DNA of 64,000 bases from Dehalococcoidia bacterium. GTDB taxonomy: Bacteria; Chloroflexota; Dehalococcoidia; GIF9; AB-539-J10. The stretch is taken from positions 195,051-259,050 of the forward strand of contig DAOUDP010000017.1 of NCBI GenBank assembly GCA_034431195.1, written 5' to 3'. The position numbers and the translations under genes are program-made. Below are positions 7,308-48,443 of the stretch, piece by piece. Position 1 is the stretch's first letter. Each line of letters starts with the position of its first letter. The notes under the pieces were generated by a model. That model was not told where the DNA came from, searched no databases, and saw nothing but the letters and a program-made list of their open reading frames with translations.

Positions 7308-7332
7308 GTGTCATTGCGAGCGAAGCAATGGC
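7308..7332. repeat. short copy of the GTCATTGCGAGCGAAGCAATG hairpin repeat family
   Basis: gtcattgcgagcgaagcaatggc: 6-bp stem cattgc/gcaatg with a 7-nt loop; same core as the repeats at 14961, 16242, 17895, 25920 and 36291. Confidence 0.6.
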
Positions 7333-14952: not shown

Positions 14953-15834
14953 TCAACAGCGATTGAGATTGCTTCGCTTCGCTCGCAATGACAATGGGGG
15001 CTTGCGATGACGATGGGGACTCGTAATGACATTTTCCAGGGAAAAGAACTCTATGGCATTCCTGGTAGTGTACTCAGCCACTGCAGCCTCGTCAATTCTC
15101 TTGAGTTGAGCCACAGCGCCGAGACTTCTGGTTATGTCACCAGGAGCGGAACGATATCTTGTCCCCCGGCCATAATATACCGGACAATCGGTTTCCAGAA
15201 GCAACTTATCCATTGGCGTTTCCTTAACCGCCCTCCTATGCTCTTCATGATATTCAGCGGCAGGAGTGGCGGAGACATAATAGCCGCCGTTAATTATATC
15301 CCTGAGGACACTGGAAAAGCCAGTAAACCAGTGAAAAACGGCTTTAGCTATGCCAGCATCTTGGACTAATTGTAGCCCATCTCTCCAGGCATACCTGGTG
15401 TGAAGGCTCACCGGCTTGTCGTATTTTTTAGCTAACCGTAAAAAGCGTGCTAACACTTCTTTTTGGAATTCTTTGGATGCTCTTTTTACCACCCTCTTGT
15501 CGTAATCCAGTCCTATCTCACCGATAGCAATTGCTTGGGAGATATTCTGCTTGATGAATTCCAGTTCACCATTGACCTGGGAAGAATTGAGTTCGCCTAA
15601 TTGCCACGGGTGCAATCCCAGTGCCGGGAAAACGAAGGAGGGATATTTCTGAGAAATCTCCAGCGTTTTTATATTCGAGCGATAATCTGAGCCCACGGCT
15701 ATGATGGCGACGATGCCCCTTTCCCGGGCATTATCAAGTGTAGAATCGAGATTTTGTAATTCATCCAGGTGAGCGTGAGTATCGATAAGGCTATACAACT
15801 TCAGGTTGCTTTTCAGGGCGTGTTTGCTCGGCAC
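14953..15834 (-). CDS. tatD: TatD-family metal-dependent hydrolase; C-terminal ~25 aa encoded by a repeat element; alternative TTG start near 15798
   Basis: IDTHAHLD, EIGLDY and ETDCP motifs; terminal ...SPHRHRKPPLSLRAKRSNLNRC is translated from the repeat at 14961-15035. Confidence 0.83.
   Translation of the reverse strand: MPSKHALKSNLKLYSLIDTHAHLDELQNLDSTLDNARERGIVAIIAVGSDYRSNIKTLEISQKYPSFVFPALGLHPWQLGELNSSQVNGELEFIKQNISQAIAIGEIGLDYDKRVVKRASKEFQKEVLARFLRLAKKYDKPVSLHTRYAWRDGLQLVQDAGIAKAVFHWFTGFSSVLRDIINGGYYVSATPAAEYHEEHRRAVKETPMDKLLLETDCPVYYGRGTRYRSAPGDITRSLGAVAQLKRIDEAAVAEYTTRNAIEFFSLENVITSPHRHRKPPLSLRAKRSNLNRC
14961..15035. repeat. 75-bp composite repeat (three ~19-bp GCTCGCAATGACA-like units ending AATGACATTTT), inserted in-frame at the 3' end of tatD
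   Basis: gattgagattgcttcgcttcgctcgcaatgacaatgggggcttgcgatgacgatggggactcgtaatgacatttt; near-identical architecture to 36291-36366. Confidence 0.7.
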
Positions 15835-16231
15835 GCATTTTCTTGTAATACGTGAGTCCCAGTTCAGTGGGCTTGTAGCTATAAAGGGAGAATTGTCCGG
15901 TTTCCCTGGTAATCATGGTTGCCGAGAGAAGCACTTTCACCGCTGTCTCTCCAGTTTGTCCTACCAGAAGGAGATGGTGGTCAGGCACCGGCTTATCGGT
16001 GTCTTCATATTCCTCACAAATGCTGGTTAGCAACTTTGCGGGCTCCTCTACCAGGTTCTTGAGAATCTCCTGCATTGCCTCAGTCTTTCTGATTATGTCG
16101 ACGAAATTTTCAAAAGCACCCATTTGACCCAAATGTATTTTAGACCATCGGATGGTAATATGACAAATAACGACTATTCGTTCACATGATTGGTGGTAAT
16201 ACACAGCTTCTTCTTGGTCGCTGTGAGGCAT
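15791..16231 (-). CDS. hypothetical protein (~146 aa); start at second ATG (16231) because the first ATG lies inside the repeat
   Basis: AAGGAG 6 nt upstream of ATG 16231; first listed ATG (16249) is part of repeat core gcaatgacaag; no recognisable domain. Confidence 0.45.
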   Translation of the reverse strand: MPHSDQEEAVYYHQSCERIVVICHITIRWSKIHLGQMGAFENFVDIIRKTEAMQEILKNLVEEPAKLLTSICEEYEDTDKPVPDHHLLLVGQTGETAVKVLLSATMITRETGQFSLYSYKPTELGLTYYKKMRAEQTRPEKQPEVV

Positions 16232-16241
16232 GTTCTCCTTT

Positions 16242-16585
16242 CTTGTCATTGCGAGGAGCGCCCCTCTTGTCGTTGCCGGGAAATCCTAAACTCAAATTAG
16301 TAGCTATCAGCTATCAGCCATTAGCTAACTGCTGACTGCTGATTACTGACTGCTTTTTCATATTGTTTAGTGTTTCGGATTTGGGATTTAGAGTTTTCTT
16401 TGTAAGGGATTGCCGCGCTTCGCTCGCAATGACAGTAAGAAAGGCTCGCAATGACACTAAGAAGGGCTCGAAATGATAATCTCCTTATTGTCACCCTGAG
16501 CGATAGCGAAGGGTCTGAAGGAGATTCTTCGGTCGCTGTGCTTCCTCAGAATGACAGTAAAAAGGGGCTCGCAATTACAGTGAAA
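16242..16585. mobile_element. MITE-like ~345-bp repeat element with GTCATTGCGAGG... / ...GCTCGCAATGAC inverted termini and internal tandem ~22-bp units
   Basis: Shares start (cttgtcattgcgaggagNgcccctcttgtcNttgccgggaaatcctaaactcaaa), internal tagctatcagc/gactgctttttcat blocks and terminal gctcgcaatgac with the copy at 25920-26155; no ORF. Confidence 0.6.
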
Positions 16586-17893: not shown

Positions 17894-17894
17894 T

Positions 17895-18012
17895 GTCATT
17901 GCGAGGAACAATAGCGGTTGCGAGGCGTAGCCGAAGCAAACTCGGAGCAACAGATTCCTCATTTCACTTGGAACAAGGATTGCCATGCCTTCGGCTCGCA
18001 ATGACAAGGAGG
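17895..18012. repeat. repeat-family copy with inverted GTCATTGCGAGG ... GGCTCGCAATGACAAGGAGG ends; 3' end supplies the SD for the NUDIX gene
   Basis: tgtcattgcgaggaacaatagcggttgcgagg ... gccttcggctcgcaatgacaaggaggag immediately upstream of ATG 18023. Confidence 0.6.
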
Positions 18013-18022
18013 AGGGAAAGTT

Positions 18023-18556
18023 ATGTTGATGCCGGAGAAAAAATTGTCTAGACAACAGCTCTATCAGGGTAAAGCGGTGAGTTTATATGTGGATACGGTA
18101 GAAAAACCAGGCGGGAAGACGACTACCAGGGAAGTGGTGGAGCACAGCAAATGTGTGGCGGTTGTTGTAATTGATGAACAGGATAACGTGCTTTTAGAAC
18201 GCCAGTTTCGTTATCCAGTGAGCAAGTTCTTGCTGGAGATACCCGCTGGACGGATTGACCCTGGTGAGGAACCTATTGACTGTGTCCGCCGTGAGTTGCA
18301 GGAGGAAATCGGCTATTATCCTCAAAAAATAGAGGAGCTTGGTGGTTTTTATTCCGTTCCTGGCTATGGCACGGAGTATCTATATTGCTATTTAGCTAGT
18401 GATCTTGTCCCCAGCCGCCTTATAGCTGAGGATACTGAAGACATAGAGGTAGTGCGAGTTCCCATAAGCAAGATTACTCAGCTCATCACTTCAGGCGAGA
18501 TTTGCGATGCTAAGAGCATCGCTGCGTTACTCCATTTTCTCGTGCAGCGAGAATAA
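18023..18556 (+). CDS. NUDIX hydrolase, ADP-ribose pyrophosphatase-like
   Basis: Nudix box GRIDPGEEPIDCVRRELQEEIG. Confidence 0.85.
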   Translation: MLMPEKKLSRQQLYQGKAVSLYVDTVEKPGGKTTTREVVEHSKCVAVVVIDEQDNVLLERQFRYPVSKFLLEIPAGRIDPGEEPIDCVRRELQEEIGYYPQKIEELGGFYSVPGYGTEYLYCYLASDLVPSRLIAEDTEDIEVVRVPISKITQLITSGEICDAKSIAALLHFLVQRE

Positions 18557-25859: not shown

Positions 25860-25919
25860 GATGGCTACGTATTATAGCAGATAAATATCAAATGCAGTAA
25901 ATGAAATATAGCCTCTTTC

Positions 25920-26155
25920 CTTGTCATTGCGAGGAGTGCCCCTCTTGTCATTGCCGGGAAATCCTAAACTCAAAGCACTAAACCCTAAACAAATCCCAAT
26001 TTGGTAGCTATCAGCCTTCAGCTTCATATCGACTGCTTTTTCATTTTTGCTCTGTCATTCTGCCTTTTGATTTTTGAGTTTTGCTTTCCTGAGATTGCCA
26101 CGCCTTCGGCTCGCAATGACAGACAAGGAAGGCTCGCGATAATATAAAGAATGAC
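25920..26155. mobile_element. second MITE-like copy of the GTCATTGCGAGG/GCTCGCAATGAC element (~235 bp)
   Basis: First ~55 bp nearly identical to 16242-16296; shared internal tagctatcagc and gactgctttttcat blocks; ends gccttcggctcgcaatgacag; no ORF. Confidence 0.6.
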
Positions 26156-26249: not shown

Positions 26250-26579
26250 GTGACTGTACAAATCAAGAAAACTTACAGCGGGATAAACCCTGAGATGCTT
26301 CGTGACGAAATACGGGATCTGGTTCAAAAGCGGGGGATTATGGTGGAAGAAGCGAAGGTGCAGACCTACGGTCTTCCCAGTGGTGCAACGCAATCCCGGG
26401 TTACCATGGTGTTTAAGGCAGGGGAGGAGGAGTGCGGCAGTGCCGAGATTATCGACTTACCAGGGGGCGAAACAAAGTTGATGGTCGATCTGGATGAAAG
26501 ACTCCTCTCCCAGGAGGGCATTTCATCCCTTCAGAAGGACCTGGATTTCATCCTCGACTCATACGAGGTCAAGTGGTAA
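26250..26579 (+). CDS. hypothetical protein (109 aa)
   Basis: Intact ORF with GGAGG 8 nt upstream of its start; no recognisable domain. Confidence 0.4.
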   Translation: MTVQIKKTYSGINPEMLRDEIRDLVQKRGIMVEEAKVQTYGLPSGATQSRVTMVFKAGEEECGSAEIIDLPGGETKLMVDLDERLLSQEGISSLQKDLDFILDSYEVKW

Positions 26580-34835: not shown

Positions 34836-35459
34836 CTATTTGCCCAGCTTTGCTTCCAGCTCCTTTTGCCGCAAAGCCATGGTCACATCGCCGCGAGTCC
34901 TCTCAATGACACCACGAATCGCATCCGTGGTCCGCCTCAAGCCATGAGTGATGATTTCGGTGAAATCCATAGTCATCAATATGCCATAAATATCATCCAT
35001 GGCACCGAGCAACTCTTCACAGCGAGAGAAATCCCCTCTCCTCATGCTATCCAGTAAGTAGCGCCTTAATTCACCCACCGCTTCGCCAAGTCCATTGAGA
35101 TATGCGGCATAATCAACGCCTATTGCCTCAGCTTTGGGGAGCTCTTTCCCAACGATCAAAGCGAAGGTGATGCTCCCTTCGGCGAATTCCTTTTTAGCAT
35201 CATGAACGAATCCTGAATGAAGCAAACCGGGATGGTCATTGAGGCTACCATTTATCTCCTGAACCAATTTGTAAGTTGAGTCAAGAATTTGCCTTGCCTT
35301 ATCCTGCTCCTGACGATGAACAGCCCTTATAGCATTGGCGCTATTGCGAATTATCTGGCGGCAGAGGCGCAAAGCCTTCTCCCTGGCTTCATCCTCAGCG
35401 GTGAAATAGGCGTGGATTTCTTCAGCGATAGCTTTCAGCTCATCCCCTAACCCTGGCAT
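34836..35459 (-). CDS. translin-family-like protein (tentative)
   Basis: 207 aa all-helical; segment YLNGLGEAVGELRRYLLDSMRRGDFSRCEELL resembles the translin/TRAX core (GL.D..GEL.R); 13-bp overlap with thiE. Confidence 0.4.
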   Translation of the reverse strand: MPGLGDELKAIAEEIHAYFTAEDEAREKALRLCRQIIRNSANAIRAVHRQEQDKARQILDSTYKLVQEINGSLNDHPGLLHSGFVHDAKKEFAEGSITFALIVGKELPKAEAIGVDYAAYLNGLGEAVGELRRYLLDSMRRGDFSRCEELLGAMDDIYGILMTMDFTEIITHGLRRTTDAIRGVIERTRGDVTMALRQKELEAKLGK

Positions 35460-36577
35460 TTTCTCTTTGCCTTCCTTATCTCACTAACCAACCCCTTGGT
35501 GGCTTTTTTGATATCTGGCTTGCTTAACACGGCACTAATCACAGCAACACAATCAGCACCAGCAGCAATTACCTCACCAACATTGCTTTGATCAATGCCA
35601 CCGATAGCCACCACTGGTGAGGATACTGCCTCCCTCACCTGCTTGAGAATATCCAGGCCGACGACAATAGCCCCTTCCTTGCTCTCCGTAGGGAACATCG
35701 AGCCCACAGAAATGTAATCCGCCCCTTCATCCCCCGCCTCAATTGCCCGTGATACCGTGGTAACCGAGCTACCAATTATCTTAGCCATCGGCAATTCTCT
35801 CCTGGCAACATGAACCGGCAGATCTCCGTAGCCAATATGGAGACCATCAGCATCGACTGCCAGTGCTAAATCCAAATAGTCATTGATGATGAATAAAATC
35901 CCTGCCTTCAGGCATAGCTCCTTAAGCCCCTCAGCAACGGGCAATAGTTCCACCATACTCCTTTGCTTATCACGAAGCTGGATAACCTTGGCCCCTCCCT
36001 GAATAACCTCTCGCGCTACCTCCAATTCATCCCTGCCACCCAGAACTTGCCTATCAACGATAACATAAAGGCCAGTCAACTCCTTCAGCTTATCCTGCCG
36101 CGTTAGTCTGGAAACCATCTTTTTTTCCACCGAATAAAGGCAGAACCTCACCTTCTCAAACCTGGTAGCATCCAGCTTGGAGCTCAGTTCATCCAGCTTG
36201 GCCAACTCCTCCAATACTCGCAGAGATTCCTCCACCCTGTTGGCATTGGCTTCGACCAGGCTGGCTAAATCAGGGTAGGACTGCTTGTTGAGATTGCTTC
36301 GCCTTCGGCTCGCAATGACAGAGGGAGGGCTCGCAACGACAGAGGGGCAGCTGTCAATGACATTTTCTCTGCCGACATCGTGTTCCGAGTCCCGTTCCTC
36401 AAGAAGAATTATGCCCAGAGACTCACCGACTTCAGCAAGACTGTGACGCGTGGTTCTTAACTGCTGGCTTAGTGTAGCGTCATTAAGAACGAAGCGGGCA
36501 ACATCTTCCAGAACACGCAGCCCCTCAGCAGAACGATTGAGGTTGGCATCAACTATACGAAGCAGTTGGTGAGGCAC
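35447..36577 (-). CDS. thiE: thiamine-phosphate synthase (ThiE) with ~160-aa N-terminal extension containing an in-frame repeat insertion
   Basis: C-terminal ~215 aa carries ThiE TIM-barrel motifs (LYVIVD, IQLRDK, GADYISVG, AIGGI); N-terminal extension has two helical repeats (DANLNRSAEGLRVLEDVARF / EANANRVEESLRVLEELAKL) split by repeat-encoded ENVIDSCPSVVASPPSVIASRRRSNLNK. Confidence 0.8.
   Translation of the reverse strand: MPHQLLRIVDANLNRSAEGLRVLEDVARFVLNDATLSQQLRTTRHSLAEVGESLGIILLEERDSEHDVGRENVIDSCPSVVASPPSVIASRRRSNLNKQSYPDLASLVEANANRVEESLRVLEELAKLDELSSKLDATRFEKVRFCLYSVEKKMVSRLTRQDKLKELTGLYVIVDRQVLGGRDELEVAREVIQGGAKVIQLRDKQRSMVELLPVAEGLKELCLKAGILFIINDYLDLALAVDADGLHIGYGDLPVHVARRELPMAKIIGSSVTTVSRAIEAGDEGADYISVGSMFPTESKEGAIVVGLDILKQVREAVSSPVVAIGGIDQSNVGEVIAAGADCVAVISAVLSKPDIKKATKGLVSEIRKAKRKCQG
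36291..36366. repeat. 76-bp composite repeat inserted in-frame inside thiE
   Basis: gagattgcttcgccttcggctcgcaatgacagagggagggctcgcaacgacagaggggcagctgtcaatgacatttt; same architecture as 14961-15035. Confidence 0.7.
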
Positions 36578-36923
36578 TTTGTAAATCCTTCAGAGGCTCA
36601 GGCATCACACCCTCTCTAGCTGCCTGTATTTCCTCTTTAAGCTGGGAAGGCATCTCTTCGCCCATCTCCTTAAATTTCTTCTCCGCCCAACGCCCGATGT
36701 TGCGTGGGTCTTTGTAATAATCATCGCTGAGATGCGCTGCTGGTTCGCCACTCTCCTCCCATACAGTTTGTAATGACTTATGGTAGGCGAAGCTTGATAC
36801 AGTACGGGATAAATTAGCGCTTCCGCAAAAGCGACAGGTGGCCGAAACAGGCTCCGAGATACTCCTCAGCAGAATACTCGTCTTTTCACGACAATCATGG
36901 CAGATAAACTCATAGATTGGCAC
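36549..36923 (-). CDS. FmdB-family zinc-ribbon protein with long charged C-terminal tail
   Basis: MPIYEFICHDC...CRFCG (CxxC-x16-CxxC) at N-terminus as in FmdB-family proteins. Confidence 0.65.
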   Translation of the reverse strand: MPIYEFICHDCREKTSILLRSISEPVSATCRFCGSANLSRTVSSFAYHKSLQTVWEESGEPAAHLSDDYYKDPRNIGRWAEKKFKEMGEEMPSQLKEEIQAAREGVMPEPLKDLQSASPTASYS

Positions 36924-36935
36924 CCTGCCTCCTTA

Positions 36936-37319
36936 CTAATCCCCTTCCGCCTCTGATGACTCGGATAGGCCCATCACCTCTTTCCTCTTTTGTTCAATCT
37001 GCTCAACAGGCCATTCCCCGCTCTCCATTCTCTCTGTCATTTCCTCATAATCTGGAGGAGGCTTCTCGCCTCCGGTCATTCTCTTATTCCACTCAGCTAA
37101 AGCTCTGGGGTCATTGCGCATCATCCCCTCAGTCAAGTTCCTGTCGGAAAGTATATCGTCATAAGCATCCTTGTAGGTTTTATGCATGGCGAAAGTGGAG
37201 AATGTCCGTTTGAGCTCACCCCCGCAGTGAGGGCAGGCAGGAGCATCAGGCGAAAAATTGTGCCGAAATAAGCTAACCTTGCGGTGGCAGGAATTACAAC
37301 GGTATTCGTAAACTGGCAT
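36936..37319 (-). CDS. FmdB-family zinc-ribbon protein, tandem paralog
   Basis: MPVYEYRCNSC...CPHCGG; same organisation and charged tail as 36549-36923. Confidence 0.65.
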   Translation of the reverse strand: MPVYEYRCNSCHRKVSLFRHNFSPDAPACPHCGGELKRTFSTFAMHKTYKDAYDDILSDRNLTEGMMRNDPRALAEWNKRMTGGEKPPPDYEEMTERMESGEWPVEQIEQKRKEVMGLSESSEAEGD

Positions 37320-40782: not shown

Positions 40783-42129
40783 GTGGCTACCGGTGATTCT
40801 ATTTCTATGAGTGAACCATTTTCGGCAAAAGAGGCTTGGGCAAGAGCTTTAGGACAGCTTCAACTCCAAGTCAACAGGATAAACTATGATACCTGGCTTA
40901 GGGATAGTCAAGGTATCAATTGCGAAAACGACGTCTTCGTAGTTAGCGTTCCCAATACTTTCATCGCTGAGTATCTTACAAAACGCTTTCACTCATTGAT
41001 AAAGAAGACCATTGCCATTATCTTAGGAAAAGACTTGGAGGTCCAATTCGTGGTACAGCAGCCAACACTGGCCAGGGAGAAGTCATTGCAGCGCGACGGT
41101 GGAGTAAGCACCAAGATGAAAACCTACCGATTTAACCCCAAATACACTTTCGCCAGATTTGTGGTGGGTGATTGTAATCGCCTTGCCTATGCTGCAGCCA
41201 CAGAGGTAAGCCAGAAACCATCACTGGTCTACAATCCACTCATCATTCACGGAGATACTGGTCGCGGCAAGACTCACTTGTTACATGCTATCGGGCACAT
41301 GGCGATAGGAAGTGGACTGAACGTGGTTTACTCCTCCGCTGACCAATTCATCACTGAATTTGTGCTCGCAGTCAAGCAGAACGATGTAGACCATTTCCGA
41401 AGTAAATTCGCCCCGGTAAATGTGTTCCTTTTCGATGATTTCCAACTGCTAGATAATAAAAAGCAGACTCAACAGTTTTTCTTTCACACTTTCAACGAGC
41501 TTTATCATAATAACTGTCAAATCGTGATCGCTGCTGACTGCGCCCCCAAAGAGATGTCTTTAGTCGGCAACAGGCTAAGGTCACGCCTGCAATGTGGTCT
41601 TGTTACTCAAATTCAACCACTCGATTTTGGGACACGGTTAGCTATACTTCAAGCCAAGTCAACGGAGAAGAGACTCCCTATCATCGAAGAGACGCTGCAA
41701 TTTATCGCACAGAAGATACAGGATAACGTCTACCAGCTTGAAGGTGCCCTCACATACCTCGATGCCTATACCAAGTTAACCGGGCTTAGCTTAACTCCAC
41801 AAATAGTCACCAAATTATTAACAACTAATAAAAACAACGATGACTGTAAATTAATAGTCCAAACGGTAGCTGAATATTTTGACTGTTCCCTAGAGCAATT
41901 GCTAGGCAGAAAGAGGGATAGGGAGACTTCCCTAGCACGCCAAATCGCAGCGTATCTCCTGCGAGAGAAAGGAAATTACTCTTTCACCGAGATCAGCAAT
42001 ATATTGGGTAATAGGAATCATGCCACAATACTCCATGGATATAAGAAAATAGCTAACGATTTAGGGGTTAATTCCAAGCTGAAAAGGCAAATCAGTCAAA
42101 TTAAACGACAAATTGACAATTCGTATTAA
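40783..42129 (+). CDS. dnaA: chromosomal replication initiator DnaA
   Basis: Walker A GDTGRGKTHLLHAIG, Walker B LFDDFQ, sensor motifs, C-terminal DNA-binding domain (LARQIAAYLLRE...HATILHGYKKI); start possibly at ATG 40807. Confidence 0.92.
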   Translation: MATGDSISMSEPFSAKEAWARALGQLQLQVNRINYDTWLRDSQGINCENDVFVVSVPNTFIAEYLTKRFHSLIKKTIAIILGKDLEVQFVVQQPTLAREKSLQRDGGVSTKMKTYRFNPKYTFARFVVGDCNRLAYAAATEVSQKPSLVYNPLIIHGDTGRGKTHLLHAIGHMAIGSGLNVVYSSADQFITEFVLAVKQNDVDHFRSKFAPVNVFLFDDFQLLDNKKQTQQFFFHTFNELYHNNCQIVIAADCAPKEMSLVGNRLRSRLQCGLVTQIQPLDFGTRLAILQAKSTEKRLPIIEETLQFIAQKIQDNVYQLEGALTYLDAYTKLTGLSLTPQIVTKLLTTNKNNDDCKLIVQTVAEYFDCSLEQLLGRKRDRETSLARQIAAYLLREKGNYSFTEISNILGNRNHATILHGYKKIANDLGVNSKLKRQISQIKRQIDNSY

Positions 42130-42901: not shown

Positions 42902-44848
<1,947 letters not shown>

Positions 44849-46283: not shown

Positions 46284-48443
46284 ATGATGAATTTGATGGA
46301 AAAGGAGAAGTTTTTAGCTAAAGCACAGGCATACCTGCCAGAAGAGCAGGTAGCACTGGTTGAGAAAGCTTACGATTTTGCTCTTGATGCGCATCGAGGG
46401 CAATTGCGGAAATCAGGAGAGCCTTACCTGGAGCATCCTGTTGGTGTAGCAATGATTTTAGCCGAGCTTCAATTTGATGGTGCTACTCTAGCTGCCGCCT
46501 TGCTTCACGATGTTCCCGAGGATTGTGGAGTCTCAGTGGGTGAAATCAAGACTAACTTTGGTGATGAAGTAGCTAGATTGGTAGGGGGCACCACGAAATT
46601 GAGCAAGTTGTCAAAGCCTGTTTATGGAGATGCAGCCAGGAGGGAGCTTCAAGTGGAGAATCTGCGCAAGATGCTTATAGCCACTGCTGAGGATTTAAGG
46701 GTTATATTTATAAAATTAGCTGACCGGCTACATAATATGCGTACTCTTGGAGTTTTGCCGCGGGGAAAACGCGTTGCCATTGCTCAAGAGACTTTAGAGA
46801 TATACGCTCCGCTAGCTCATCGTCTGGGTATCCGGAGCGTAAAATGGCAGCTAGAGGATTTGGCTTTTCGTTATTTAGAGCCACGAGAATATCATCGGGT
46901 TGCTCGTTTGGTAGCTTCGAAACGAGAACAAAGAGAAGTTTTTGTAAACGAGGCTATCCAAGCGGTAGGCGAGGAATTGAACAAAGTGGGTGTAGAAGCA
47001 AGCGTTTTTGGCAGGCCAAAGCATGTTTATAGTATCTTTCGGAAAATGGGCAAATATGCGTCGCAGGGTAAGGATTTTGGCGATATCCATGATCTTTTTG
47101 GCTTGCGCATACTGGCTAATTCAATTCCAGACTGCTATAAGGCACTGGGAATAGTTCATAGCCTTTGGCATCCTATACCTGAAGAAATTAACGATTTTAT
47201 TGCTAATCCTAAAGAGAATGGGTATCAATCTTTACACACAGCGGTGATATATCACGGGAATGCATTGGAGGTGCAAATTCGGACTTATCAAATGGACCGA
47301 GTTGCTGAGTTTGGGGTGGCTGCCCACTGGCGCTATAAGGAGGGAGAAAAGGGAGGGGAGTCTTTTAGGGAAGTGGCTTGGTTACCTCAACTGGTTGAGT
47401 GGCGAGATGTATTTGACAGCAAGGAATTTTTGGAATCCGTCAAAAGCGATATGCTCGCTAATCGGGTGTTTGTTTTTACTCCCAAAGGCGAAATAAAGGA
47501 ATTGTCCAAAGGAGCAACGCCTTTGGATTTCGCTTTTCACGTTCATACCGACTTGGCTTATCGCTGTGTTGGGGCAAAAGTGAATGGCCGATTGGTGCCA
47601 TTGAACTATAATCTTAATAATGCTGATGTGGTGGAAATCATTGCTGCTAAGAAGGAGAAAGAACCTAGTCTGGATTGGCTCAATCCTGGACTTGGCTATG
47701 TCAAAACTTCTCATGCACGGGCGAAAATCCGCCAATGGTTCAACAAGCAGGATAGGGCTCAAACCATTGAGGCGGGGAAGCAATTTCTGGGACGGGAACT
47801 CAAAAGGGCAGATATTGTCCTCCCAAGCGTTGGTGAAGTGGCATCACTATTTGGTTTCAAGAATATGGATGACTTTTTTGCTGCCATCGGGAGTGGTAAC
47901 CTTAGTCCCTCTCAAATAATAGCAAAACTAGCCGTAAGTGAAGAGCGGCCTGAAGAGCTGGTTGAAGTTCGTCCTTCAAAAAAGGTTAGCCCGGCGAGCG
48001 TTAAGGTACTGGGCGTAGGAGACTTGGTCACTCATCTGGCTAACTGTTGTCATCCCTTGCCAGGGGATAAGATTATTGGTTATATTACTCAGGGACGAGG
48101 TGTTACCGTGCATCGTCGAGATTGCCCTAATATCGTTAATGAAGTGGAGAGGGAGCGGCTGGTTGAGGTGGGTTGGGGCGGTGTGGAGCAAGTTTACCCG
48201 GTGGCTATTCAAGTTAATGCTTGGGATAGGATAGGCTTACTTCGGGATATTAGCGTTATTATTGCTGAGGAAGGAGTAAATATCACTGACTTTCATGTGG
48301 CAGACCACGAGGATATTGTCTCATTGAATCTTAGTCTGGAAATAAAGGGTACTGCTGAGTTAGCTAGTTTGATATCTAAAGTTTACTCAGTTGGGGGCGT
48401 AGTAAATGTGAGAAGGAAAGGAGGAGTGAATGCCTCGCATTAA
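46284..48443 (+). CDS. relA: bifunctional (p)ppGpp synthetase/hydrolase, RelA/SpoT family
   Basis: 719 aa; HD domain (HRGQLRKSGEPYLEHP), synthetase domain (GRPKHVYSIFRKM), TGS and ACT domains. Confidence 0.92.
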   Translation: MMNLMEKEKFLAKAQAYLPEEQVALVEKAYDFALDAHRGQLRKSGEPYLEHPVGVAMILAELQFDGATLAAALLHDVPEDCGVSVGEIKTNFGDEVARLVGGTTKLSKLSKPVYGDAARRELQVENLRKMLIATAEDLRVIFIKLADRLHNMRTLGVLPRGKRVAIAQETLEIYAPLAHRLGIRSVKWQLEDLAFRYLEPREYHRVARLVASKREQREVFVNEAIQAVGEELNKVGVEASVFGRPKHVYSIFRKMGKYASQGKDFGDIHDLFGLRILANSIPDCYKALGIVHSLWHPIPEEINDFIANPKENGYQSLHTAVIYHGNALEVQIRTYQMDRVAEFGVAAHWRYKEGEKGGESFREVAWLPQLVEWRDVFDSKEFLESVKSDMLANRVFVFTPKGEIKELSKGATPLDFAFHVHTDLAYRCVGAKVNGRLVPLNYNLNNADVVEIIAAKKEKEPSLDWLNPGLGYVKTSHARAKIRQWFNKQDRAQTIEAGKQFLGRELKRADIVLPSVGEVASLFGFKNMDDFFAAIGSGNLSPSQIIAKLAVSEERPEELVEVRPSKKVSPASVKVLGVGDLVTHLANCCHPLPGDKIIGYITQGRGVTVHRRDCPNIVNEVERERLVEVGWGGVEQVYPVAIQVNAWDRIGLLRDISVIIAEEGVNITDFHVADHEDIVSLNLSLEIKGTAELASLISKVYSVGGVVNVRRKGGVNASH

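Follow-up and report, generated by a model that had tools for sequence, protein, structure and literature searches.

Two unrelated housekeeping genes of a Dehalococcoidia bacterium, thiE and tatD, contain DNA that also recurs between genes, and the question they raise is whether these segments are ancestral protein sequence or copies of a repeat that has come to be read as protein. Both genes lie in a 64,000-nt stretch (GenBank assembly GCA_034431195.1, contig DAOUDP010000017.1, positions 195,051 to 259,050 of the forward strand), which we call the window and whose first letter is position 1. The coding segments are evidently repeat copies and not ancestral protein sequence. They are best explained, with a probability of about 0.8, by a repetitive extragenic palindrome (REP)-like hairpin repeat with a TGTC or CGTC tag and tandem half-units, which is tolerated in a loop of ThiE subject to a reading-frame filter, became fused to TatD by loss of a stop codon, and varies in unit number by slippage.

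The hairpin repeat of the window

The motif GCTCGCAATGACA, allowing up to two mismatches, occurs 17 times in the 64-kb window against 1.41 occurrences expected, and none of 100 shuffled sequences reached 17. There are about eight hairpin-bearing repeat loci of this type, two of them coding (thiE and tatD), and the intergenic copies are present on both strands. A pattern search for [C/T]GTC followed by 5 nt and GA[GA], and then by the reverse complement of the 5-mer, located eight hairpins, at 7309 (+), 14993 (-), 16434 (-), 16489 (+), 16556 (-), 18006 (-), 26121 (-) and 36320 (-), of which six are intergenic; a further match at 47503 looks unrelated to them. Related Dehalococcoidia DNA totaling 360 kb contained 56 hairpins with a complementary 5-mer, versus one in a control with the 5-mer reversed. 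The stems show compensating variants (ATTGC/GCAAT, ATTCT/AGAAT, ACCCT/AGGGT, ATCCC/GGGAT and others), and a slid control in this covariation count revealed that the 3' arm of the common hairpin type is shifted by one base.

The hairpin consensus is [C/T]GTC-ATTGC-GAGC-GNA-GCGAA-GCAAT-C(TC/CA). It describes a module of 26-30 nt that comprises the [C/T]GTC tag, an ATTGC stem, a GA(G) internal loop, a GC-GNA-GC inner hairpin, the GCAAT stem and a CTC or CCA tail. The predicted folds are uniform in shape: in most copies an outer stem of 5 bp leads through a 2x2-3 internal loop to an inner stem of 2-3 bp, which is capped by a loop of 3-4 nt. Specific to this lineage are arrays in which half-units of 19-22 nt, each corresponding to the module's 5' half (GTCATTGCGAGC and a pyrimidine spacer of ~9 nt), stand in tandem beside the hairpin. 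A preliminary description of this DNA had assigned the units a length of ~19 bp throughout; that period was found in tatD only, the units being 21 nt long in thiE and 22 nt in the intergenic copies. Composites of half-units and hairpin, 86-88 nt in length, fold no better than shuffled sequences on either strand (z-scores -0.6 to +0.35). The term palindromic element therefore does not fit the whole insert, only the terminal part of which is a small hairpin.

The repeat segment of thiE

The thiE open reading frame (ORF; 35447-36577, minus strand, 376 aa) encodes at its N terminus a ThiD2 domain (PF17792), which the profile matches in two stretches, followed by the thiamine-phosphate synthase domain TMP-TENI. 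At 36290-36364 (-) it contains AAT, GTCATTGACAGCTGCCCCTCT, GTCGTTGCGAGCCCTCCCTCT and GTCATTGCGAGCCGAAGGCGAAGCAATCTC in succession, which are in frame and encode ENVIDSCPSVVASPPSVIASRRRSNLNK; sequence and translation agree with the preliminary description. Alignment with the insert-less thiE of a relative (L001) delimits an extra segment of 69 nt, or 23 codons, at 36293-36361 (-), with AAT on both flanks, so that the boundary can slide by 3 nt. On the minus strand, the element begins with a more decayed 21-nt half-unit (36341-36361, GTCATTGACAGC plus TGCCCCTCT), continues with a second 21-nt half-unit (36320-36340, GTCGTTGCGAGC plus the pyrimidine spacer CCTCCCTCT), and ends with the terminal hairpin GTCATTGCGAGCCGAAGGCGAAGCAATCTC (36290-36319), in which a 5-bp ATTGC/GCAAT outer stem and an internal loop enclose a GCC-GAA-GGC inner hairpin and are followed by a CTC tail.

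The insert interrupts a protein domain at a loop. With the insert present, the Pfam ThiD2 match is broken at profile position 69 and scores 115.9 bits; when the 23 residues are excised in silico, as in an insert-less orthologue, the match is one stretch over positions 1-124, with 126.0 bits. An AlphaFold2 model of ThiE (mean predicted local distance difference test score, pLDDT, 84.9) contains a four-helix ThiD2 bundle (H2-30, H34-66, H104-126 and H137-166), and residues 67-98, between the confident helices H34-66 and H104-126, have pLDDT values below 50. The repeat-encoded residues are thus placed by the model in the loop between ThiD2 helices 2 and 3. The preserved frame suggests that the repeat segment is translated in ThiE and likewise in TatD; for ThiE, the tryptic peptide predicted across the repeat is ENVIDSCPSVVASPPSVIASR.

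Relatives' thiE DNA was collected from 80 metagenome loci and targeted look-ups, and the stretch between the RDSEHDVG and ANAxRVEES motifs was compared. The ThiE homologues are from Dehalococcoidia, according to the names given by their sources. In close relatives, ThiE lengths are 362, 369, 376, 383 and 396 aa, the repeat segment being the sole difference. Members of the window's clade (79-94% identity) have linkers of 78, 99, 120, 141 or 162 nt, always in frame, as given by a 51-nt base, a 27-nt hairpin module and n x 21-nt units. L208 carries one hairpin alone. Where L007 has a single unit, L006 and L021 have two in succession that are identical. L001 and L020, whose ThiE proteins are ~70% identical to that of the window, have a 51-nt linker without the segment and only GAGAAAAT followed by CTCCCC at the site. 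Half-units resemble the consensus most where they adjoin the hairpin and are decayed farther away from it, a gradient that, together with the identical adjacent units, is the pattern expected of slippage-type duplication beside the hairpin. Differences from the unit consensus number 12, 23 and 28 at codon positions 1, 2 and 3, respectively, a spread that argues for little constraint on the peptide.

Across the wider clade every ThiE has some linker at this position, of 17-56 residues. In orthologues of ~60% identity, the contents of the loop are of four kinds: the nearly canonical single hairpin described below for L024 and L035; right-arm relics of the hairpin, GAAGCAATCTC, in L022, L037 and L073; a palindrome unrelated to it, CCCTCTCCC-TCGAA-GGGAGAGGG, in L023, L025 and L055; and degenerate sequence. 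The thiE loop is, by these comparisons, an old and repeatedly occupied site.

We also observed the latter palindrome in perfect form, as (ACCCTCACCC)-CCCTCTCCC-TCGAA-GGGAGAGGG, in the ThiD2 loop at L023:1715-1735 and L055:427-447 and in L025, L052 and L064, where it is read as ...LPSPSKGEG.... The same palindrome is found at the unrelated proteobacterial loci L090, L111, L176, L180 and L188 and downstream of trx in L207, and it is therefore another interspersed repeat.

The repeat segment of tatD

The tatD ORF (14953-15834, minus strand, 293 aa as listed) has a Pfam TatD domain that ends at residue 265, and its C-terminal ~27 residues are repeat-derived. At 14965-15030 (-), GTCATTACGAGTCCCCATC, GTCATCGCAAGCCCCCATT and GTCATTGCGAGCGAAGCGAAGCAATCTC make up the last ~27 codons (...SLRAKRSNLNRC and the stop), and here too the sequence and translation given previously were reproduced. 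The two 19-nt half-units, GTCATTACGAGTCCCCATC and GTCATCGCAAGCCCCCATT (14993-15030, -), are read in a frame shifted relative to the thiE copy, and the terminal hairpin GTCATTGCGAGCGAAGCGAAGCAATCTC (14965-14992, -) forms the 3' end of tatD, upstream of trx. Although the two coding copies had been called almost identical, and do share an architecture of two half-units plus hairpin, they agree at 60 of ~80 alignment columns and differ by three 2-nt indels, and their near-identity is confined to the terminal hairpin of 28-30 nt.

Most TatD orthologues are 258 aa long and end four residues past FFSL. In L204 (72% identity), the gene ends in a TAA stop followed by a 23-nt spacer that contains the trx ribosome-binding site, and no element is present. 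In L002 and L003 (93% identity), the native stop is intact after ...RMPLP, and one hairpin directly follows it. Other strains read through the element: a single hairpin in L205 is translated as NVIASEAKQSRSPLNPGRRSNDNNKR and a longer hairpin in L207 as MSLRAEALRAAKQSQPLIVL, each followed by a stop, and four to five 19-20-nt units are read through in L206. The window tatD, with its two 19-nt units and hairpin, is without ~15 nt of the native last codons and stop, and is read through to a TGA located 16 nt before the trx ATG. The differing frames and tails among these strains mark the peptide as a by-product.

The tatD case is one of stop-codon loss beside a 3' element and not of internal in-frame insertion. 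With this correction, the earlier proposal of in-frame repeat insertions is supported; in thiE, 70%-identical orthologues are without the segment and alleles differ by whole units. As a separate point, the tatD start is probably listed too early (15796-15834): homologues begin at codon 13 (MY/LYxLIDTHAHL), which would give a protein of ~281 aa.

Distribution across phyla

To describe the hairpin beyond Dehalococcoidia, we used the pattern GTCATTGCGAGC-N2-8-GAAGCAATC, which has 21 fixed bases and for which we calculate ~2 chance matches in 596 Gb (both strands, seven gap lengths). It matched at least 120 loci in a species-representative genome collection. Host taxa among the matches listed include Bradyrhizobium, Sphingomonadales, Rickettsiales, Legionellales, Desulfobacterota, Bacteroidia, Chloroflexi/Dehalococcoidia, Patescibacteria, Planctomycetota, cyanobacteria, Sporomusa, Zixibacteria and others. 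The same pattern was found in at least 120 IMG/VR contigs. In one 4.6-kb viral contig from IMG/VR (L234:2695-2818), four hairpin copies stand in tandem with a 33-nt period.

Of 143 cross-phylum hairpins among the matches listed, 104 have C and 34 have T directly before GTC; the loops are GAA, GCA, GTA or GGA, and the tails are CAG/CAT or TC. The C plus CAG/CAT tail is that of Proteobacteria (86 of these 143), and CTC, CCC or CCT is found in this lineage and in other non-proteobacterial matches. Of 318 core matches, 173 carry CGTC as their tag and 62 carry TGTC.

Relation to known repeat families

The closest description in the literature is that of the CGTC-tagged REPs of Di Nocera et al. (2013, BMC Genomics 14:522; PMC3733652). 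As set out in the accessible text of that survey, these have an unpaired CGTC (TGTC and CCTC being accepted) at one end of a stem-loop, A-T at the first two stem positions, an 8-9-bp stem, a 4-5-nt loop and a short tail near CCA. They are present in high copy, mostly extragenic, as singles, dimers or clusters and often as inverted dimers, and they frequently lie inside ORFs, to which they add 7-80 residues; no dedicated transposase is described for them (PMC3733652). Going by that text, the present repeat resembles them in its tag, A-T-first stem, intragenic copies and lack of a linked transposase, and perhaps in its short tail. Every window hairpin begins with TGTC. ATTGC/GCAAT and ATTCT/AGAAT have A-T at both of the first two stem positions, and ACCCT/AGGGT has it at the first only. 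In the 64-kb window there are eight hairpins, six of them intergenic, with one inverted pair (16489-16556) and two long inverted composites. The head GTCATTGC is, by our back-translation, as in the VIAGLDPAI peptides of CGTC-3 in the portion of the survey compared, and among the compared peptides of its Additional file 3 (VIPAKAGI, VIAGLDPAI and others) none is a product of this hairpin.

Relative to the families, CGTC-1 to CGTC-4, as the survey's text portrays them, the inner part is different here (GAGC-GNA-GCGAA, giving a 5-bp stem, an internal loop and a 2-3-bp stem), the tail in this lineage is CTC, and tandem arrays of 19-22-nt half-units are absent from the descriptions in that text. 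Chloroflexi are listed in its accessible text for GTAG repeats only. Judged by the written definition, the hairpin would fit the CGTC-tagged REP superfamily. A full-text literature search for the repeat sequence strings returned only unrelated primer matches.

The preliminary description compared the insertions to Rickettsia palindromic elements (RPEs). RPE-4 and RPE-6 end in CGTC and have been placed in the CGTC superfamily (PMC3733652, in the text accessible; PMC10969869), and the likeness is closer than a mere reminiscence insofar as the present hairpin fits the class, as worded there, that holds them. The composite as a whole folds no better than shuffled sequence. Classic RPEs measure ~150 bp, encode a conserved peptide of ~45-50 residues and are known from Rickettsia only (PMC10969869). 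As with RPEs, repeats are found in frame within unrelated housekeeping genes and are tolerated there. Here, the inserts measure 27 nt + 21n, the peptide drifts, the frame varies by gene and the host is a free-living Dehalococcoidia bacterium, in place of a ~100-150-bp palindrome with a conserved peptide in Rickettsia. The element behaves like an RPE and lies outside the classic RPE families.

GTAG REPs, together with the bacterial interspersed mosaic elements (BIMEs) that they form and the REP-associated tyrosine transposases (RAYTs), offer a second comparison, since they are also short extragenic hairpins, often located past stops or between operon genes and frequently in inverted pairs. REPs are thought to affect mRNA stability (PMC10969869, and PMC3733652 in its accessible text). 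The tag here is instead TGTC/CGTC, the stems are much weaker, and Pfam scans of the 60 window ORFs revealed no transposase (no RAYT, Y1 or IS200/IS605-type gene). Coding minisatellites, or variable number tandem repeats, which change by slipped-strand mispairing, are similar in that strains differ by whole 21-nt (7-codon) units and that adjacent units are identical. They differ in that the unit here comes from an interspersed genomic repeat and not from the gene, and no on/off or functional switch was seen in the strains compared. The repeat is a further instance of a phenomenon already described and does not represent a system of a new kind.

Origin of the coding copies

We propose that tandem duplication of the module's 5' half beside the hairpin took place in this lineage. 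In thiE, only alleles whose added length is a multiple of three (27 nt + n x 21 nt) would have survived, and ThiE would carry the element as a floppy loop extension of 9-37 residues that is presumably translated, with a unit number that may grow and shrink by replication slippage. In tatD, the element would have come to lie between tatD and trx, and a small deletion would then have taken the native last codons and stop, with translation continuing to the next TGA. The best reading of the repeat is that it is selfish or near-neutral and resides in permissive protein positions. Its spread between loci would imply mobility, slippage is the probable cause of the unit differences, and both proteins seem to bear the insert at little cost.

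The thiE allele series, with 0, 1, 2, 3, 4 or 5 modules in frame, is a natural record of a repeat entering a housekeeping enzyme. It illustrates filtering by reading frame and protein structure, followed by minisatellite-like growth and shrinkage, and extends the CGTC/TGTC-tagged class of repeats to Dehalococcoidia. It also carries a warning for the annotation of metagenome-assembled genomes: odd linkers or C-terminal tails of the kind ...VIASRRRSNLN..., ...SLRAKRSNL... or ...VIASEAKQS... arise by read-through of a repeat and are not protein features.

Several observations weigh against this account. Most copies are without the 8-9-bp stem and 4-5-nt loop of CGTC repeats, a 9-bp stem being present only at 7309, and the inner stem has fewer base pairs and more interruptions than the stems of the CGTC families. 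Nearest-neighbor DNA energies of the hairpins are weak (-3 to -6 kcal/mol) and their z-scores mostly non-significant, so the argument for a hairpin rests on the compensating stem variants and not on energy. Mini-hairpins with GNA loops and G-A pairs are more stable than nearest-neighbor models predict. The direction of change in thiE is a further difficulty. In a neighbor-joining tree of ThiE with the linker removed, the empty alleles L001 and L020 are sister to the window's clade, which makes one early gain followed by loss and two gains equally parsimonious; the empty alleles could thus be secondary deletions, and their AATCTC could be either a relic of the hairpin 3' end or the original target.

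Conservation of the hairpin also speaks against a simple passenger. The terminal hairpin is identical at 29-30 of 30 positions in 13 of 13 related thiE alleles whose flanks are 79-93% identical, and L017 and L019 keep it even though their flanks are ~82% identical and third positions 64-75%. For L019, with a flank identity of 82.4%, we calculate the chance of 30/30 as ~0.003, a figure that applies to few, related lineages, which are not independent. Moreover, a nearly canonical single hairpin, GAAAACGTCATTGCGAGAGAAGCGAAGCAATCTCAG, is located in the same loop of the ~60%-identical L024 and L035, in another frame and with the peptide ENVIAREAKQSQ. An identity of the hairpin above that of its flanks makes a neutral passenger insufficient as an explanation and would require nucleic-acid selection, gene conversion from other copies, or re-insertion.

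The first of these options leads to an alternative that we regard as unlikely but worth serious consideration, in which the hairpin is a selected nucleic-acid signal both in thiE and at the tatD-trx junction, and the protein merely tolerates it. It might influence the stability or processing of mRNA, cause translation to pause, or be bound, as single-stranded DNA or RNA, by a conserved host factor. Such a role would account for the conservation of the hairpin in the 13 alleles while the half-units beside it drift freely, for the intact hairpin at the same loop of the distant L024 and L035, for the compensating stem variants, and for the REP-like position past stops or between co-directional genes (tatD-trx and GNAT-NUDIX). 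It would sit less easily with the low predicted stability and weak z-scores, with an Rfam scan of the whole window that gave no match at gathering thresholds, and with L001 and L020 (thiE) and L204 (tatD), which do without the element. The conservation statistic comes from few and related strains and is not independent, and gene conversion from genomic copies or re-insertion yields the same pattern. A selected signal would in any case overlap with the tolerated repeat that we favor, as it addresses the persistence of the element and not its identity. In a stronger form, which we consider improbable, the hairpin would be a signal selected at the nucleotide level even within coding DNA and common, near base-for-base, to Chloroflexi, Proteobacteria, Bacteroidota, Patescibacteria, cyanobacteria and viral contigs; this would imply a universal host or mobile-element recognition factor and a ThiD2 loop that serves as a long-lived landing pad, taking up palindromic repeats again and again. 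Strict hairpin conservation in thiE, combined with near-identity across phyla, is the one aspect of this repeat that could lead further.

A different identity for the mobile unit is suggested by two long palindromic composites in the window. The first, an imperfect palindrome of ~240 nt in a divergent intergenic region (16235-16478), folds with -81.5 kcal/mol (z-score -4.6), and its ends are inverted arrays of repeat units plus the hairpin 16406-16434 (-). The second, of ~220 nt (25913-26135), has a fold z-score of -2.9 and the hairpin 26091-26121 (-); its left arm matches 16235-16296 over 62 nt at 94% identity. Both composites share their end architecture and differ in their centers. Both may be MITE-like (miniature inverted-repeat transposable elements) or structured RNAs. 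Their centers, we note in passing, contain short repeats of the AGCTATCAGC or CTGACTGCTGA type.

Bacterial MITEs are non-autonomous, have inverted ends and are able to form in-frame fusions with host ORFs (PMC10969869, PMC5896051), and the two ~230-nt composites with inverted ends look similar to this group, which includes Correia/NEMIS, ERIC and the QMITE of Coxiella. The mobile unit could then be a palindromic composite of ~220-240 nt, a MITE with half-unit arrays as terminal inverted repeats, of which the thiE and tatD copies would be one-ended deletion fragments. The shared arm, the fold scores and composite ends built of unit plus hairpin, as in the coding copies, are in keeping with this view, which we nevertheless find doubtful. 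The hairpin alone, at 26-30 nt and without the composite, is the form found across phyla and at most loci, and L208 and L205 carry one hairpin only. Just two composites were seen, with unlike centers. Neither a target-site duplication nor a parent insertion sequence was found: AAT stands on both sides of the thiE insert, but the flanks of other copies are unrelated, with none in common, and the 60 window ORFs include no transposase.

That the segment is an ancestral low-complexity linker of ThiE and tail of TatD, coincidentally like the intergenic repeats, is very improbable. The linker present in every wider-clade ThiE and the frame that is always kept would agree with it, but the DNA motif is also present outside coding sequence, on both strands, and at the at least 120 genome loci of many phyla, and it is read in different frames, as VIASRRRSNLN, SLRAKRSNLN, VIAREAKQSQ, VIASEAKQS or MSLRAE. 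The Pfam profile is without the segment, and the loop in other lineages has the unrelated palindrome CCCTCTCCC..GGGAGAGGG, itself repeated elsewhere. Alignment of orthologues had been proposed as the means of recognizing an ancestral peptide by its universal presence; the peptide is not universal, L001 and L020 (ThiE) and L204 (TatD) being without the element. An assembly or binning artefact, in the form of mis-joined or collapsed repeats, has next to no probability, because, even though this is an uncultured Dehalococcoidia assembly and short repeats are prone to mis-assembly, the same loci, flanks and gene order recur in dozens of independent assemblies (JGI, ENA, NCBI and Logan) and the arrays, at no more than 111 nt, are shorter than typical reads.

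Other copies and neighboring genes

The remaining copies in the window are intergenic. A solo hairpin, TGTCATTGCGAGCGAAGCAATGGC (7309-7332, +), has the 9-bp stem mentioned above, a 7-nt loop and a DNA fold z-score of -3.2. An inverted pair of variant hairpins with compensating stems consists of TGTC-ACCCT...AGGGT at 16489-16517 (+) and TGTC-ATTCT...AGAAT at 16521-16556 (-). Motif and hairpin searches also located copies between the GNAT and NUDIX genes (17894-18015): a degenerate copy at 17894-17943 (+) adjoins a TAA stop, and the hairpin at 17976-18006 (-) is followed by a AAGGAGGAGG spacer beside the NUDIX start codon. At 18007-18025, this purine-rich repeat-unit spacer, GCTCGCAATGAC-AAGGAGGAGG, is located 7 nt upstream of the NUDIX ATG (18023), and the repeat thus appears to supply the NUDIX Shine-Dalgarno sequence.

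Directly upstream of thiE, at 36549-37319, are two paralogous Zn_ribbon_8 genes (124 and 127 aa), the nearer of which shares 29 nt with the start of the listed thiE ORF; L001, L208 and L209 have these genes in the same order. Three ORFs of 106-152 aa (2545-2865, 15791-16249 and 26250-26579) gave no Pfam match, and the one at 15791-16249 has a conserved counterpart upstream of tatD in relatives, annotated there at 110 aa. The region as a whole is core housekeeping DNA: the window contains dnaA (40783-42129, +) and gyrB (42902-44827, -), and is therefore probably near the chromosomal replication origin.

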